Part shown: positions 1 through 8,131 of the stretch, piece by piece | How positions within the stretch are numbered: position 1 is the first letter of the stretch | Layout: the number at the start of each line of letters is the position of its first letter | IMG/VR virus record: IMGVR_UViG_3300029504_000072 | Direction: 5' to 3' (one strand) | Source of the DNA: a virus | Lineage: Duplodnaviria; Heunggongvirae; Uroviricota; Caudoviricetes | DNA length: 13,090 nt | Notes under the pieces: generated by a model | What the model was told of the DNA's origin: nothing | The model's database searches: none | Seen by the model: the letters and a program-made list of their open reading frames with translations, nothing else | Made by a program: the position numbers and the translations under genes

Positions 1-89
1 AGCTGATAGAAACAGAAGCCACTGGAGCACCTCAAAAACACCATCATACACTAAATCAGTAAGTTGGCAGCATCACCCGAACAGCGTTC

Positions 90-1184
90 ATGCGTTCAAC
101 TGGTACGACAGATATTCGGGAAGCCCGAGTCATTCGTGACCGGATAATGTATGAGTTTTTCACCATCCGTGATCGACTGAAACCAAAGCCACAGGGAAAT
201 TGTGTTGATCGCGTATTGAAAGAACTACGTCAGGTTGACCAATACGTCACCCAGAATGTGGGGATCGACTTCGCCACGGCTCGCGTGTGTCCTTCTCTTG
301 TCCAACTACGGGATGAATTCATTGTCCAACACAGTGACAGGCGCAAGCTGTCTACTTTGAGCAAGTACATCAAGGCCGTAGAGGTGTTCACGGCACATTT
401 CAGGTGCAAGGATTTCCGCCTGCACGAGATCAACAGAACGATGGTGACTGACTGGCTCGACAACGCAAAACTTGAACGGGCAACACAGACACTGGCAAAT
501 TATTTGGGCTGCTTGTCCCAACTGGTGGCGCTGGCCCAGAACCGCTACCACGATGCGCCAAAAGAGAACGTCTTCACAGCCCATAAGCTGGATGTGCGAC
601 ATGATCACGAGAGTTACGAGCCATTCAGCGGTGATGAACTGGCGCAGGTTGTGGATTTGCTTGATCAGGAGATGAAGGAAGTCGCGTTGGTGGGAATGTA
701 TACCGGGATGCAACTTAATGAAATCTGTTCGCTACAGATCGACAATATCAAAACGGTAGAGGGGGTTTGGTGTTTCGAAGTGACGGAAGGCAAGACGCGC
801 AATGCGGCCCGCCTGGTTCCCATTCATAGCAAGTTACGGACTCTCGTTAAACATCTTATCCAGAACAATCACAGCGGCTTCCTGTTCTACCATGCCAGTA
901 TAACTGAACGAGCAGACGGCAAGCGCTCTACATGGCACACACAGCGATTCACACGGGCTAAACGGAAGGCGCTAGGAGAGAAGGGGACAGAAAGAAAGGT
1001 ATTTCACAGCCTGCGGGGAATGTTTATCAGCCAGCTTGATCACGGTGGTGTCCCAGAAGACAGGATCGCATTGATCGTAGGTCACGAGAGAGGGAAAACT
1101 GAATCATTCCGCACCTATAGCCAAGGTGCCAGTATGAAGGAGTTAGCAACCTATGTTAATTTGGCAACCTACAAGAAAATTTAG
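90..1184 (+). CDS. Phage-type tyrosine integrase (site-specific recombinase)
   Basis: 364-aa ORF; upstream in-frame stop at 60-62. C-terminal box II HSLRGMF (H-x-x-R), then VGHERG...FRTY (His and terminal Tyr nucleophile). Box I region reads TGMQLNE, with Gln where the catalytic Arg normally sits. No clear Shine-Dalgarno before the ATG. Confidence 0.8.
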   Translation: MRSTGTTDIREARVIRDRIMYEFFTIRDRLKPKPQGNCVDRVLKELRQVDQYVTQNVGIDFATARVCPSLVQLRDEFIVQHSDRRKLSTLSKYIKAVEVFTAHFRCKDFRLHEINRTMVTDWLDNAKLERATQTLANYLGCLSQLVALAQNRYHDAPKENVFTAHKLDVRHDHESYEPFSGDELAQVVDLLDQEMKEVALVGMYTGMQLNEICSLQIDNIKTVEGVWCFEVTEGKTRNAARLVPIHSKLRTLVKHLIQNNHSGFLFYHASITERADGKRSTWHTQRFTRAKRKALGEKGTERKVFHSLRGMFISQLDHGGVPEDRIALIVGHERGKTESFRTYSQGASMKELATYVNLATYKKI

Positions 1185-1253
1185 GTGACAAAAAGCAATA
1201 AATAATTACAATTACGTTCAAAAAACCATCCAGGGAAAGTGAGTTAAAAACAA

Positions 1254-1490
1254 GTGATTAAAAAAATTATCATCATCATATTGTTAATTGTAGCGGGTCT
1301 TTGGGGCTATGGGGCAAGTATTGGTTACTCTCAAAACGATAAGGGAGTATCTTTATTCCAAGTTGCTTACACATATAACTCCCTGAATTTTATAAGTCAG
1401 TATGGATATATGTTTTTCATACGACAAAACCATCAATTAGTCGAAAGAGCTAAAGATTTAAATCGTGATTTTGAGCATAATACAAATTAA
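1254..1490 (+). CDS. Hypothetical small membrane protein (78 aa, GTG start)
   Basis: N-terminal hydrophobic helix KKIIIIILLIVAGLWGY; AT-rich; in tandem with the next ORF. Non-ATG start and weak RBS lower confidence. Confidence 0.35.
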   Translation: MIKKIIIIILLIVAGLWGYGASIGYSQNDKGVSLFQVAYTYNSLNFISQYGYMFFIRQNHQLVERAKDLNRDFEHNTN

Positions 1491-1505
1491 CCACTGGAGC
1501 CTTTA

Positions 1506-1778
1506 ATGAAAAAAATTATTTTCGTATCATTAATTTCATTTTCAGCCATTGCTTCATATGCTGATACACCTTACGCAGATGAGAAAGAAATGTCAGAAGA
1601 TGTATCTCTTTTAGCCCAGTCATCTCTATTATATAAGAGTAATGGTGAGAAAAGAATGTATGATAATACAAAGATGCTATGTATTGGCATCCAAGGAAAG
1701 TACGATCTAACAAATAACAGGACTGAAAACATGATCCGATGGATGGGAAAAGTTCAAAGTATCTGCTCTGATTATTAA
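1506..1778 (+). CDS. Hypothetical small secreted protein (90 aa) with Sec-type signal peptide
   Basis: GGAG at 1496-1499, 6 nt before the ATG. N-terminus MKKIIFVSLISFSAIASYA followed by a polar mature part with two Cys. No family recognised. Confidence 0.55.
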   Translation: MKKIIFVSLISFSAIASYADTPYADEKEMSEDVSLLAQSSLLYKSNGEKRMYDNTKMLCIGIQGKYDLTNNRTENMIRWMGKVQSICSDY

Positions 1779-1779
1779 T

Positions 1780-1809
1780 AAAAAAACCGGGCGGTTTTAC
1801 CCGTCCGGT
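1780..1809 (-). terminator. Intrinsic terminator-like hairpin, canonical for minus-strand transcripts
   Basis: 9-bp stem ACCGGGCGG / CCGTCCGGT (one G-U pair) with loop TTTTAC at 1786-1809. The A-run at 1780-1786 becomes a U-tract after the hairpin on the minus strand; on the plus strand the hairpin alone follows the 1506-1778 stop. Confidence 0.45.
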
Positions 1810-1909
1810 CAGATAGCATCTTTCAGTTTTTGCTGCATTGCGTAATGGTGTATAGCGGGTTCGAGGCCGACGCTGGCGACCTTGCTCAGAAATGTTGAGC
1901 GATGCACAC

Positions 1910-1913
1910 CTAA
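1910..1913. repeat. IS5 target-site duplication, left copy (CTAA)
   Basis: CTAA directly abuts the left IS5 terminal inverted repeat and is repeated at 3109-3112; IS5 makes 4-bp duplications at YTAR-like targets. Confidence 0.9.
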
Positions 1914-3108
<1,195 letters not shown>

Positions 3109-3112
3109 CTAA
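3109..3112. repeat. IS5 target-site duplication, right copy (CTAA)
   Basis: CTAA directly after the right IS5 inverted repeat, matching 1910-1913. Confidence 0.9.
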
Positions 3113-3173
3113 CATTTTAAATGTTGGAATCGCAACGTAGTTATTATCATATAACAGCTTGTTTCCTGATTTA

Positions 3174-3201
3174 GCCAGCCTCCCCAAAGGCTGGTTTTTT
3201 T
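3174..3201 (+). terminator. Rho-independent terminator (plus-strand orientation)
   Basis: Stem CCAGCC (3175-3180) / GGCTGG (3189-3194), 8-nt loop, then a T-run at 3195-3201. Lies between IS5 and the blc stop. Confidence 0.55.
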
Positions 3202-3229
3202 CTAATAAGTATCATTTCGGGTGGGGATT

Positions 3230-3754
3230 TTATTGTTTAACCCATAATAGTTCATTGACATTGAATCCCAACTTTTGAGCGGTACGCACATAGTCTGCTT
3301 TTACATTATCTGGAATAGTTTGGGTCCTTGCCAGAATCCATAGGTATTCTCTGTTCGGACCACTGACAAGAGCATACTTATACTCATCATCCAGCTTGAT
3401 TACATTATAGCCACCATAGAAGGGGCCAAAAAACGAAACTTTCAACGCTGCAGTTTTAGTATCTCCAGTAAAGTATGCTTTACCTTCGCTCTCGCTCCAT
3501 TTGTTTTTCGTTGGATCGTATCCACGGTTAAGTACGCGAATCCCTCCGTCGTTCCGTTTTTCATAAGTAGCGCTGACTTGTTCCAGACCACGTTCGAACC
3601 AGTTCTCGAGGCGAGCTATTTCATACCATTTTCCGAGGTAGCGGTTGGCGTCAAAATTTGTAATCGGCTGCACACCTTTAGGTGGTGTCGGGGCCTTACA
3701 TGCTATAAGAGTGAAAGAGAGTGCAATGCCAGTCAACACAGGCCATAACTTCAT
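3230..3754 (-). CDS. blc: Outer-membrane lipoprotein, bacterial lipocalin Blc family (divergent paralog)
   Basis: 174-aa ORF with lipoprotein signal and lipobox (MKLWPVLTGIALSFTLIAC); lipocalin motifs NFDANRYLGKWYEIARL and KVSFFGPFYGGYNVI...YLWILAR; roughly half of positions match E. coli Blc as I recall it. Confidence 0.85.
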   Translation of the reverse strand: MKLWPVLTGIALSFTLIACKAPTPPKGVQPITNFDANRYLGKWYEIARLENWFERGLEQVSATYEKRNDGGIRVLNRGYDPTKNKWSESEGKAYFTGDTKTAALKVSFFGPFYGGYNVIKLDDEYKYALVSGPNREYLWILARTQTIPDNVKADYVRTAQKLGFNVNELLWVKQ

Positions 3755-3946
3755 AATAAATCCTGTACTTTTGATAGTTGAGAGTAAGTATGAAAGATAG
3801 ATGAGTACGACCGATCACTTAAAGAACTTTCCTACTATATTAGGAATAGTCAATAACAGAAAAATTGTCAGTGATGAAGCCAGAAAGGCAATTTAGTCCG
3901 TGCACTACAAAGTTTATGTGTTAATGAATTAGTCAAGGGGGAGGAA

Positions 3947-4906
3947 ATGATAAAAAAACCTGTGATTGGGATCAGCGGTTGTTTGGGCGGTTCTGCTGTT
4001 CGTTTTGATGGTGGTCACAAAAGAGATGACTTTTTAATGGACAAATTAGTGGAATGGGTAACATTCAGACCAGTATGTCCGGAAATGGCTATAGGGCTGC
4101 CAGTTCCGCGTCCTGCTCTACGACTTGTGCGCTCGAAGCAAGGAAATATACGGATGTGTTTCAGCCACGACCAGAATGAGGATGTGACAGAGAGAATGAC
4201 AGAGTTTAGTCGTTCTTATATGGACAAATTAAAGGATGTATCGGGGTTTGTGGTTTGTGCTAAATCTCCCAGCTGTGGCATGGAGCGCGTGCGTGTCTAT
4301 GATGAAAATGGTAATCGAGGTCGTAAAGATGGAGTGGGACTATTTACGAGCACTTTGATGGAAAAGTTTTCCTGGCTACCGGTTGAAGAGGATGGGCGAT
4401 TACATGATCCAGTGCTTCGTGAGAATTTTATTGAAAGAGTTTTTGCTTTGCATGAGCTCAATCATCTTTACAAGGAGAAATTATCAAGAAGAGAGTTATT
4501 AGCTTTTCATAGTCGTTATAAGCTTCAGTTGTTGGCGCATAGCCAGGCAGGCTATAAAGATATGGGACCATTTGTGGCTGCAATACACGAGTGGGCGGAC
4601 CTTGAATCATACTTTGAGGTGTATCGTGATAATCTGATGGCGATTCTCAGAAAACCAGCATCACGTAAAAATCACACGAATGTGCTGATGCATATACAGG
4701 GGTATTTTAGTAATTACTTAAGTACACGCCAGCGTAAAGAGTTGAGCGAGGTTATACTTAACTATCGCTTTGGCACATTGCCTCTTCTTGCGCCGTTGAC
4801 TCTGCTGAAGCATTATCTGGGTGAGTATCCTAATGATTACTTGCTTACACAGAATTACTTCGATCCCTATCCGGAAGAACTGGCTCTAAGACTGATGGTG
4901 AATTAA
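3947..4906 (+). CDS. DUF523/DUF1722 two-domain protein (TudS-like Fe-S domain fused to YbgA-like domain)
   Basis: 319-aa ORF; strong RBS GGGGGAGGAA before the ATG. N-terminal motifs GISGCLGG...VRFDGGHK, VCPE and SPSCG match the Cys-containing DUF523 signature; the C-terminal half resembles YbgA-type DUF1722. Confidence 0.75.
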   Translation: MIKKPVIGISGCLGGSAVRFDGGHKRDDFLMDKLVEWVTFRPVCPEMAIGLPVPRPALRLVRSKQGNIRMCFSHDQNEDVTERMTEFSRSYMDKLKDVSGFVVCAKSPSCGMERVRVYDENGNRGRKDGVGLFTSTLMEKFSWLPVEEDGRLHDPVLRENFIERVFALHELNHLYKEKLSRRELLAFHSRYKLQLLAHSQAGYKDMGPFVAAIHEWADLESYFEVYRDNLMAILRKPASRKNHTNVLMHIQGYFSNYLSTRQRKELSEVILNYRFGTLPLLAPLTLLKHYLGEYPNDYLLTQNYFDPYPEELALRLMVN

Positions 4907-5312
4907 CTGTATGCGATATCATCTGAAAGTGATGAGTTCCTGTATGCAGGATATTTACAATCGTAAAAACTACGCTATGATGCTCATAGTGTCAGTTTTT
5001 ATAAAAATCCTGTTCACGCTAAAGAAAACATTGAGATGCAATTTAATGTTGGTAAACATACCAGCCCCAAACGATTTTATTCAATCTGTTTTTATATGAA
5101 GATATTTCAAGTGAATATTAAGAGTATATAATATTATTATTGCACGCAGCTATTATAATATAACAGATTAGTTTAATGATTTGTTTTTTGTGAGTTAAAC
5201 ACATGGTTTTATAGTTGTGATGCAATGAGATTTTCCTTATTGTTGAACTGGCGAATATTGATTTTCCACCTATACTTACCTGGTGTAACCCCAATGATAT
5301 CAGGTGGATAAT

Positions 5313-6026
5313 ATGCCATACATATGTTCTATCATTTTGGTGTTGAACTCGTTTGGTGTCCGAATTGGTAAAGAAGATATTTTGTTTAAAAAAGGAAATG
5401 CTGTCCTCATTGAATACAATTTAAAAGATCTTTTTTCGTCAAATACAGATCATCTAATGATCGTAGATGTTGAGGAGAAAACAGTTAATGATTTCTTTAA
5501 AAACTACACACTCTCACCTTTTTCTGTAAGAAGGTTTTATCCGTCATACTTGATAGTAGAATGTGAAGATTTTTCATTGTTAAGGAACTTGGTTGCATGC
5601 TTGAATTGTGATAGCAAAACCGTGGATGTAGTTAGAAATCAAATATCACTTGCATGTCTTGCTGTCTTATCTTCAGAGAAAATAGTGCAAAGTTTTTTGT
5701 TCGGAAGTCTTAATAGCTTAGGTTGTAAAGTTAAGGCTATTATTCACTCGGATATCTCAGCGTCATGGAGACTTTGTGATATATCTTCAAGATTATATAT
5801 GAGCGAGAGTTTGTTAAAAAGAAAATTAAAAGACGAAGGATTATCGTTTAGTAAATTAATTCTTGAAGAACGAATGATGATGGCGCAAAGATTATTGATC
5901 TACAGTAACCATACTGTCGGCAAGGTGGCGGGAATATGCGGGTATGACAATGCATCATATTTTGTAAGTGTTTTTAGAGGATATTTTGGTGTGCCTCCGC
6001 ACCAATATTTATCAAGATTTTCTTAG
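5313..6026 (+). CDS. AraC/XylS-family transcriptional regulator, AppY-like
   Basis: C-terminal AraC HTH (LLKRKLKDEGLSFSKLILEERMMMAQRLL...KVAGICGYDNASYFVSVFRGYFGVPPHQY); N-terminus MPYICSIILVL resembles AppY-type regulators. I place the start at ATG 5313 (RBS AGGTGG at 5302-5307) rather than the track's GTG 5304. AT-rich gene and upstream region. Confidence 0.8.
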   Translation: MPYICSIILVLNSFGVRIGKEDILFKKGNAVLIEYNLKDLFSSNTDHLMIVDVEEKTVNDFFKNYTLSPFSVRRFYPSYLIVECEDFSLLRNLVACLNCDSKTVDVVRNQISLACLAVLSSEKIVQSFLFGSLNSLGCKVKAIIHSDISASWRLCDISSRLYMSESLLKRKLKDEGLSFSKLILEERMMMAQRLLIYSNHTVGKVAGICGYDNASYFVSVFRGYFGVPPHQYLSRFS

Positions 6027-6216: not shown

Positions 6217-6432
6217 ATGAAATCCATGGATAAGTTAACAACGGGCATCGCCTACAGCACCTCTGCAGGCAGTGCTGGCTACTGGTTTTTACAGTTGCTC
6301 GATAAAGTCACACCCTCACAGTGGGCGGCAATAGGTGTATTGGGTAGTCTGGTATTTGGCATGCTGACGTATCTGACAAACCTTTATTTCAAGATTAAAG
6401 AAGACAGGCGTAAGGCTGCGAGAGGAGAGTAA
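6217..6432 (+). CDS. Class II holin (phage 21 S-type pinholin) with dual-start motif
   Basis: 71-aa product [31 protein letters not shown]...[13 protein letters not shown]; two TM segments and a charged C-terminus; Met1 and Met4 starts (antiholin/holin); RBS GGAGGTGAGG at 6205-6214. The track's 99-aa ORF from 6133 carries an N-terminal extension with no RBS. Confidence 0.85.
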
Positions 6433-6436
6433 GACA

Positions 6437-6655
6437 ATGACTAAAAACTATGAACTGATTGTGAAAGGGACCCGCAATTTTGAGAATAAAGTTACGGTAA
6501 TCTTAACGTTACAGGACAAAGAACGTTTTGCCGGTGAAATTTTTGATCTGAACATCAACCTTGAGCGACTTGAAGGAGCTGGTTTGGATTATTATGAAGT
6601 TACTGCGGTAAAACATGCCAAACAGTTCTTGAGAGATTTGGCTGAAAAAATATAA
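6437..6655 (+). CDS. Hypothetical 72-aa protein between holin and endolysin (positional equivalent of Qin ydfR)
   Basis: RBS AGGAG at 6423-6427; soluble, no TM. Occupies the slot where Qin-like prophages carry a small gene between S and R; homology not verifiable here. Confidence 0.5.
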   Translation: MTKNYELIVKGTRNFENKVTVILTLQDKERFAGEIFDLNINLERLEGAGLDYYEVTAVKHAKQFLRDLAEKI

Positions 6656-6673
6656 AGCGGCATTACTGCCGCT
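6656..6673. terminator. Bidirectional hairpin between convergent small genes
   Basis: Perfect 7-bp stem AGCGGCA / TGCCGCT with 4-nt loop TTAC, starting 1 nt after the 6437-6655 stop. The A-rich plus-strand flank at 6644-6655 gives a U-tract for the minus-strand transcript. Confidence 0.5.
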
Positions 6674-6766
6674 TAGAAATTATTCAATGTCTGGTAGCTT
6701 ATCAAAGATTTCGGATACTCTTATATTTGTCATATAAGCAAATTGAGATTCTGCCAGCTCTTTGGG

Positions 6767-6976
6767 TTATTTTCCCGCTTTTTCTGAGCCAAAAATTGTT
6801 TCTAAAGCCAGCATGTTATATTTGAGAACCTCTTCTCGAGTTTTACCTGATAATTTTGCGGTAACAGCAATATAAAAAGGCAACACTTTATCCAGAAGGT
6901 CGTTGTGTTTTGTCAGTTGTGGTAATACCACATCAAGTTGCTTACTGATTGGTTTGAATGGATCTATACCGTTCAT
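6767..6976 (-). CDS. Hypothetical 69-aa protein, antisense to the lysis operon
   Basis: Minus-strand ORF MNGIDPFKPISKQLDVVLPQ...FGSEKAGK; AGGGA 8 nt upstream of its ATG (spacing long); ends at the shared hairpin. No family recognised. Confidence 0.45.
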   Translation of the reverse strand: MNGIDPFKPISKQLDVVLPQLTKHNDLLDKVLPFYIAVTAKLSGKTREEVLKYNMLALETIFGSEKAGK

Positions 6977-7080
6977 AGTTACATTCCCTTATCAGAGGTA
7001 ATCAGCCATCCCCCCTTTATTACACACGCCAGTATCCACCACTGACGGGCTGAGTGCTTAACATATCTAGAGATTAGAAA

Positions 7081-7099
7081 CTGATAAATCCTGATAAAT
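7081..7099. repeat. Tandem direct repeat CTGATAAAT(C)CTGATAAAT just upstream of the endolysin start
   Basis: CTGATAAAT at 7081-7089 and 7091-7099; a third copy of CTGATAA in inverted orientation (TTATCAG) at 6991-6997. All fall in the divergent intergenic region 6977-7103. Confidence 0.4.
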
Positions 7100-7103
7100 A
7101 TCC

Positions 7104-8131
<1,028 letters not shown>

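Follow-up and report, generated by a model that had tools for sequence, protein, structure and literature searches.

What does the open reading frame (ORF) at positions 3947-4906 of IMG/VR virus record IMGVR_UViG_3300029504_000072 (Caudoviricetes) encode, and why is it found between the Q and holin genes of lambdoid phages? An earlier note, made from the sequence of this 13,090-nucleotide stretch (hereafter, the window), described the ORF as a DUF523/DUF1722 fusion gene of unknown function in a prophage island. That last statement is out of date, because such fusions are now known as RudS and a phage allele 91.8% identical to the window protein has been tested (PMC11417400). Our analysis indicates that the window ORF is very probably a functional RudS, a tRNA 4-thiouridine (s4U) desulfidase, carried as cargo in a Q-holin cassette of lambdoid phages. 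We base this on how the protein is built (its domains, catalytic residues and fold), on its near-identity to an enzyme that has been tested, on the order of the surrounding genes and on the evidence for purifying selection, all described below. The enzyme itself is not new, as the family, its mechanism and the 92%-identical phage allele have already been published. What we add is modest, namely the fixed position of the gene between Q and holin and a correction of the statement that Escherichia coli lacks RudS.

Domain architecture of the protein

The gene, hereafter called rudS, and its parts are as follows.

3935..3944, plus strand: Shine-Dalgarno-like purine-rich run AAGGGGGAGG, directly 5' of the rudS ATG, read from the sequence
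3947..4906, plus strand: rudS, 319 amino acids (aa), ATG start, stop codon within the coordinates; TudS-DUF1722 fusion, predicted tRNA 4-thiouridine desulfidase
3965..4393, plus strand: TudS/DUF523 catalytic domain, aa 7-149 (PF04463)
4520..4873, plus strand: DUF1722 domain, aa 192-309 (PF08349)

According to the ORF list, 3947-4906 is a single uninterrupted plus-strand frame of 319 aa, and both domains are thus located in one polypeptide. The Pfam hidden Markov model (HMM) search matched PF04463 (2-thiour_desulf, formerly DUF523) to aa 7-149 and PF08349 (DUF1722) to aa 192-309, in each case over the full length of the profile (137 bits, E = 5.8e-40, and 136 bits, E = 9.4e-40, respectively). 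These scores are far over the gathering cut-offs; therefore, the matches are not due to chance, and the fusion proposed in the earlier note is borne out. The purine-rich run at 3935-3944 is also kept in the phage rudS alleles.

The window protein is 100% identical to RefSeq WP_000592549.1, a 'YbgA family protein' of E. coli strains S171-1 and EC-107, and it matches phrog_3275 in PHROGs v4 (a 319-position profile, 745 bits), which is labelled 'unknown function'. Neither name reflects the published function of RudS, indicating that annotation has fallen behind the literature. The RefSeq name derives from the 49% identity of aa 164-315 to YbgA of E. coli K-12 (b0707), a protein of ~169 aa that consists of DUF1722 only, lacks the TudS domain and has N-P where the window protein has S239-R240. 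The name is a loose one, because the identity is only 49% and the score against the YbgA equivalog model (NCBIfam NF007549), which spans only aa 161-315, is 189.1 bits and thus under the cut-off of 237; this model was rejected as a label. The score of the NCBIfam TudS-related model is likewise below its cut-off (17.7 bits versus 130), and the window protein is a 319-aa two-domain fusion rather than a stand-alone TudS, which would be a DUF523-only protein of ~150-165 aa.

Catalytic residues, conservation and predicted fold

The three cysteine motifs that had been noticed from the sequence are real. GISGCLGG occupies aa 8-15 (C12), VCPE aa 43-46 (C44 and E46) and SPSCG aa 107-111 (S107, S109 and C110). 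C12, C44 and C110 align with C10, C43 and C104, which ligate the cluster in the TudS crystal chain 6z92_A, and none of them has been lost. A sequence search of the PDB with the window protein found the TudS desulfidase only (6z92 and related entries), and the AlphaFold2 (AF2) model of the protein (predicted local distance difference test score, pLDDT, 76; predicted template modelling score, pTM, 0.77) gave significant matches to TudS crystal structures only (6z96, 6zw9, 6z93 and 6z92; probability 1.00; template modelling score to target 0.62-0.68). The relationship to TudS, which had been suggested from the motifs, was thus confirmed at the levels of both sequence and fold. No solved structure was matched by the DUF1722 half of the model in the structure search.

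To define the family, we searched 1.84 billion representatives exhaustively with HMMER and obtained 6,522 relatives, 1,170 of them at E <= 1e-30. The alignment used next contained 142 sequences: the window protein, RudS_vir (the tested phage allele) and 140 full-length representatives with 35-56% identity to the window protein. Conservation across this alignment is 95-99% at each of C12, C44, E46, R55, S107, S109 and C110 (97-99% for the three cysteines), and all are present in the window protein. The sole family-wide residue missing from the window protein is P142, which is replaced by S; RudS_vir lacks P142 as well. By use of a proxy, the KT-like Pseudomonas representative P0140, which shares the numbering of RudS_KT (Pseudomonas putida PP_0741), the RudS_KT residues C17, C49, E51, R60, S111, S113 and C114 were mapped to C12, C44, E46, R55, S107, S109 and C110, respectively, and the tRNA-contact pair S243/R244 was mapped to S239/R240. 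The catalytic set and the tRNA-contact pair of RudS_KT are therefore the same in the window protein, and S239 and R240 are invariant in 29 enterobacterial homologues. Two further positions differ: N26 and Y25 of RudS_KT correspond to D21 and F20, and the Y25F substitution is neutral in RudS_KT.

Comparison with published RudS and TudS enzymes

The name RudS was given in 2024 to the TudS-DUF1722 fusion, which was described as a [4Fe-4S] tRNA 4-thiouridine desulfidase that converts s4U to uridine (Jamontas 2024, NAR 52:10543, PMC11417400). Six RudS proteins expressed in E. coli cut tRNA s4U 4.7- to 26-fold, whereas stand-alone TudS and E. coli YbgA did not lower it (PMC11417400). Conversion of tRNA s4U was shown in vivo and in vitro for RudS_KT and in vivo for RudS_vir, and the DUF1722 domain of RudS_KT binds the anticodon arm of tRNA (PMC11417400). 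RudS_KT mutants in Cys, Glu, Ser and Arg residues are inactive, which defines a required set of three Cys together with Glu, Ser, Ser and Arg (PMC11417400, Table 2). RudS_KT also shortened the growth delay induced by ultraviolet A (UVA) light (PMC11417400).

The closest tested enzyme is RudS_vir of Escherichia phage 1H12 (H3V29_gp66, NC_049947), to which the window protein is 91.8% identical; its identity to the protein of phage IdasGreatGrand is 97.5%. RudS_vir has the same 319 aa and the same Cys12, Cys44 and Cys110, and none of the 26 substitutions between the two proteins falls at a catalytic position. Expression of RudS_vir in E. coli lowered tRNA s4U (PMC11417400), and the window allele would be expected to do the same. 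RudS_vir is encoded in the same cassette (Q, Blc, RudS, AraC-like and holin). The AraC-like neighbour of 1H12 is, however, only 76% identical to that of the window, and the window carrier is a Qin-like prophage in which Q has been replaced by an IS5-family insertion sequence (IS) and the lysis genes are unlike those of 1H12.

RudS_KT and RudS_ST (Salmonella STM1389/ORF319) share the TudS plus DUF1722 architecture of the window protein, and the length and cysteine numbering of RudS_ST are equal to those of the window protein (PMC11417400, Table 1). The genes for RudS_KT and RudS_ST are chromosomal and lie beside MerR/LitR-type regulators or photolyase, whereas rudS in the window is phage-borne and accompanied by an AraC-type regulator. 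TudS (stand-alone DUF523; 6Z92, 6Z93, 6Z96 and 6ZW9), a [4Fe-4S] desulfidase of thiouracil and 4-thiouridine monophosphate (s4UMP), is homologous to the catalytic domain of the window protein and has the same three Cys ligands, CPE and SPSC motifs and fold, although the two resemble each other only weakly in sequence (phmmer E = 8e-4; structural alignment, 26-28% identity). Unlike RudS, TudS has no DUF1722 domain, and it fails to reduce tRNA s4U in vivo.

Position of rudS in lambdoid phages

The window features that surround rudS are listed below.

1914..3108, plus strand: IS5-family element, 1,195 bp, flanked by CTAA at 1910-1913 and 3109-3112; identified by transposase Pfam matches and by reading of the ends
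3173..3205, plus strand: terminator-like hairpin plus T-run, candidate tR', between the Q/late-promoter region and the cassette
3230..3754, minus strand: blc, Blc-type outer-membrane lipocalin lipoprotein, 174 aa, lipobox LIAC (PF08212, E = 7.5e-43), divergent from rudS
3755..3946, no strand assigned: divergent blc-rudS intergenic region, 192 bp
5304..6026 (RefSeq start 5313), plus strand: AraC-family regulator (PF12833, PF00165; phrog_1450)
6217..8131, plus strand: lysis genes 3' of the cassette, comprising holin (6217-6432), DUF1327 (6437-6655), lysozyme (7104-7637) and Rz (7634-8131), from Pfam and the annotation of loci L001 and L004

An integrase gene and the IS5-family element lie upstream of rudS, and the genes for holin, lysozyme, Rz and the small terminase subunit (Pfam) lie downstream, which agrees with the prophage location proposed in the earlier note. 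The divergent lipocalin gene and the downstream AraC regulator gene were also recovered by Pfam and NCBIfam, and the stretch is indeed AT-rich: the guanine-plus-cytosine (GC) content is 0.43 for rudS, 0.44 for blc and 0.34 for araC versus about 0.50-0.55 in the flanking phage genes.

The cassette occurs in live lambdoid phages and in Qin- and lambda-like prophages. Its order, Q, blc (minus), rudS (plus), the AraC-like gene (plus) and then holin, endolysin and spanin, is constant in phages 1H12 and IdasGreatGrand and in the prophages of strains S171-1, EC-107 and 18-4. We extended this comparison to 80 IMG/VR viral contigs that carry a protein at least 97% identical to the window protein and that therefore represent close relatives only. 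rudS is intact in all 80; Q is located upstream at a constant gap of about 162 bp in 78, and the full Q-blc-rudS-araC-holin order is present in 64. Lambdoid phages classically carry cargo genes in the interval between Q and holin, which contains stx in Stx phages and cspB/cspF in the Qin prophage of K-12.

The hairpin at 3173-3205 is present with the same sequence in the intact prophage of locus L004, and we infer that it is the late terminator tR'. The late promoter pR' would be situated 3' of Q. In L004, a weak candidate (TGGAGA-18-AATAAT) overlaps the Q stop codon, and a second candidate read by eye (TTGCTG-17-TAACAT; 7 of 12 matches) is also weak. Because rudS lies on the late-operon strand 3' of the tR'-like terminator, it should be transcribed by read-through, together with the lysis genes, after Q has been produced. 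Phages and prophages share a conserved blc-rudS intergenic region, but this conservation does not extend to the chromosomal versions of Citrobacter, and no common motif was seen in the alignment.

Chromosomal homologues, origin and selection

Chromosomal 319-aa homologues that are 66-76% identical to the window protein occur across Enterobacterales. In Klebsiella, Pectobacterium and Kluyvera, among others, an operon encoding amine oxidase, DUF1365, CFA-synthase-like, DUF2878 and DUF3833 proteins ends with rudS (for example, L054 1255-6960). In Enterobacter and Leclercia (for example, L016 4018-6960), a blc gene 77-80% identical to that of the window is located divergently 5' of rudS, with a MerR/MlrA-like regulator gene between the two. 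On the chromosome of Citrobacter sedlakii, blc directly adjoins rudS, as in the phage arrangement. These contexts, seen for homologues 70-75% identical to the window protein, agree with the light-responsive genomic contexts that have been reported for RudS (PMC11417400). The adjacency of blc and rudS on chromosomes, where the AraC-type regulator is missing, suggests that a phage took up the blc-rudS pair and subsequently gained the regulator.

The ratio of nonsynonymous to synonymous substitution rates (dN/dS) between phage alleles is 0.11-0.22 for rudS, 0.07-0.17 for blc and 0.20-0.25 for the AraC-like regulator gene; rudS is therefore under purifying selection.

Distribution of rudS in E. 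coli

E. coli has been said to lack RudS (PMC11417400 and a 2026 review), and this absence has been used to explain why E. coli and Enterobacter respond differently to UVA. Using a criterion of at least 80% coverage and at least 90% nucleotide identity, we found rudS, as a prophage copy of intact length, in 1,064 of the 5,426 complete E. coli genomes (about 20%). E. coli HS, a natural lysogen, carries a rudS 100% identical to that of the window. Nearly all matches are chromosomal (1,187 of 1,189), with up to three per genome, and the 3.2-kb cassette was found in 876 of the complete genomes. The absence of RudS is thus true for K-12 but not for E. coli as a species. In K-12, ybgA encodes DUF1722 alone and lies directly upstream of the photolyase gene phr, in line with the earlier note. 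No remnant of a TudS domain was detected 5' of K-12 ybgA by tblastn, and an H-repeat transposase gene is present there. The E. coli chromosome has probably lost RudS function, with ybgA left beside phr as a DUF1722 remnant.

In Nico21(DE3), a BL21(DE3)-derived strain, Q and blc are followed by the first 147 nt of rudS and then by IS3 (L070 4001-4147; NZ_CP053600.1 1589699-1589845). This remnant is 100% identical to window rudS, which means that an ancestor of the expression host of the RudS paper once carried the gene. In strain YSP8-1, an IS1 copy lies inside rudS. Two contigs from a 'Candidatus Nanosynbacter' metagenome-assembled genome (L057 and L062; JARKOR010000151.1 and JARKOR010000135.1) carry blc, rudS, araC and holin genes 85-97% identical to those of the coliphage cassette; their presence in a Saccharibacteria bin is almost certainly due to coliphage or E. 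coli contamination.

Proposed function and alternative explanations

If the window protein acts as the published enzymes do, C12, C44 and C110 of the TudS domain would hold a [4Fe-4S] cluster, the fourth iron of which would take the sulfur of 4-thiouridine. E46, placed by R55, S107 and S109, would activate water, so that s4U is converted to U and sulfide is released. Because the DUF1722 domain would dock the anticodon arm of tRNA, the enzyme would act on s4U8/9 within whole tRNA molecules and not on the free base. Transcription of rudS in an intact phage would occur together with the lysis genes, by Q-mediated read-through of tR'. With less s4U in host tRNA, UVA would be expected to cause fewer s4U8-C13 cross-links, less growth delay and a weaker stringent response, and natural lysogens may show such a UVA phenotype.

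Several observations weigh against this reading. RudS_vir desulfidates tRNA less than RudS_ST at a comparable protein level, and in a uracil auxotroph it gave the shortest lag on 4-thiouracil of all RudS proteins (PMC11417400); these two results leave its substrate preference unsettled. All published RudS activity comes from overexpression (PMC11417400). The AF2 model is of moderate quality only, with loop 14-25 below a pLDDT of 50. To the left of the cassette, the window has the IS5-family element in place of Q and the late promoter, and a sigma-70 consensus scan of the 192-bp blc-rudS intergenic region found nothing with at least 9 of 12 matches. Because Q and the late promoter are gone and no good promoter lies 5' of rudS, expression in the source strain is uncertain and rudS may be silent there; any expression would have to come from some other promoter.

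The results obtained with RudS_vir could mean that the phage RudS clade acts mainly on free thiolated pyrimidines (4-thiouracil, s4U and s4UMP derived from tRNA turnover), in salvage or detoxification. The homology of the catalytic domain to TudS points in this direction, as does the tRNA desulfidation by RudS_vir, which appeared lower than its protein level predicts (PMC11417400), and TudS enzymes recycle s4UMP (PMC10611767). RudS_vir nevertheless lowers tRNA s4U significantly, which stand-alone TudS does not, and no RudS protein supported growth as TudS did (PMC11417400). None of the tested RudS proteins allowed growth on 2-thiouracil (PMC11417400), and the 2-thiouracil assay proposed in the earlier note is therefore not an apt one. 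As the tRNA-binding DUF1722 domain has been retained under purifying selection, with S239/R240 conserved, salvage as the main role is disfavoured and we consider it improbable, whereas a side activity or preference of this kind is possible. A different explanation is that the prophage in the window is decaying and carries rudS as a passenger that is not expressed, the gene being intact because of recency rather than use. In its favour are the IS5-family element in place of Q and the late promoter, the DNA from another island to its left, the lack of a strong promoter 5' of rudS and the broken cassettes found elsewhere (IS1 in rudS of YSP8-1, IS3 in the BL21(DE3) derivative and the araC frameshift in strain 18-4). 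Against it stand the 100% identity of the window ORF to an allele that is intact in many genomes, the dN/dS of 0.11-0.22 and the at least 80% of the gene kept in 1,064 of the 5,426 genomes, and it seems unlikely. In any case, it bears on expression only, and the identity of the protein is unaffected.

The suggestion of the earlier note that the gene takes part in a phage-host conflict found no support in the analysis. As a weapon or shield, RudS could, for instance, remodel host tRNA so as to evade or set off a tRNA-directed defence, or keep out other phages. rudS does occupy the classical phage moron slot and would act on host tRNA, and loss of s4U alters the stability of some tRNAs, as discussed in PMC11417400. 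On the other hand, a search against PADLOC-DB 2.0 (E <= 0.01) gave no match for RudS, the Blc-like and AraC-like proteins or the two small upstream ORFs, and the nearest relatives are ordinary Enterobacterales chromosomal genes in stress- or light-type operons or beside MerR/MlrA-like regulators, not in defence islands. A role of this kind is thus very improbable, and the tRNA s4U desulfidase remains the preferred reading.

As to the benefit of such an enzyme, we tentatively propose, as an idea that is still rather doubtful, that lambdoid coliphages carry RudS for their own benefit or, together with Blc, as a 'sunlight-tolerance' module for lysogenic conversion. The former version is suggested by the position of rudS in a putatively Q-dependent late operon and by the UV induction of such prophages: s4U would be erased during lytic growth, and late protein synthesis would be spared from near-UV cross-links, uncharged tRNA and the stringent response. 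If the conversion-module version is true, ~20% of E. coli strains would differ from K-12 in their UVA response. The Q-holin slot and the Blc partner, which also accompanies chromosomal rudS, offer a natural system in which to ask whether an eraser of a tRNA modification serves the phage or the lysogen.

Cassette partners and lysis region

The lipocalin encoded at 3230-3754 scored 312.6 bits against NCBIfam NF007786 (Blc subfamily), above the cut-off of 267. A lipocalin-type protein recurs beside rudS in chromosomal as well as phage settings, whereas the AraC-like regulator is restricted to the phage version of the cassette and is missing beside the chromosomal rudS homologues. The regulator is YdeO/GadX-like (112 and 90 bits, under the NCBIfam equivalog cut-offs). 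The YdeO/GadX-like class of AraC regulators includes the prophage regulators AppY, PatE and PsrA/B. In a tblastn search of the phage collection, no other phage AraC-type regulator was more than 46% identical to the window regulator, which probably represents a distinct member of the class rather than PatE, PsrA or PsrB of O157. Among the phage alleles, the AraC-like regulator is 76-86% identical, versus 92-97% for RudS and Blc, and thus evolves much faster. Its gene is frameshifted or truncated in ~10 of the 80 viral contigs and is also frameshifted in strain 18-4.

In the lysis region, the DUF1327 (ydfR-like) gene encodes 72 aa in the window versus 103 aa in EC-107, and ~500 bp between holin and lysozyme (region 6598-7093) are not common with EC-107. 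A minus-strand ORF of 69 aa in this interval (6767-6976) matches phrog_25324 ('unknown function').

Insertion of IS elements and the left-hand island

The CTAA at which the IS5-family element is inserted corresponds to L004 6743-6746; in intact prophages, this site lies 35-38 bp past the end of Q, counted from its stop codon. The sequence to the left of the element (window 1-1913) is not phage early DNA but a separate island, which contains an integrase gene (90-1184), two small AT-rich ORFs (1254-1490 and 1506-1778) without family matches and an IS1 fragment. This left-hand 1.9 kb sits at a different chromosomal site in 17 complete genomes, and no record among the complete E. coli genomes covers >80% of the window. 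The junction at the IS5-family element could represent either recombination between two IS5 copies or an assembly join across the repeat.

None of the 78 IMG/VR contigs with Q and blc has an insertion between these two genes. Strain S171-1 carries an IS5-family element at the same CTAA (L001 10911-12110), the left-end sequences of the two elements being somewhat different, and in other genomes IS5/ISKpn26, IS3, IS2, IS1 or IS903B is present in or beside the cassette. These recurrent insertions may reflect repeated inactivation of the late operon in domesticated prophages.

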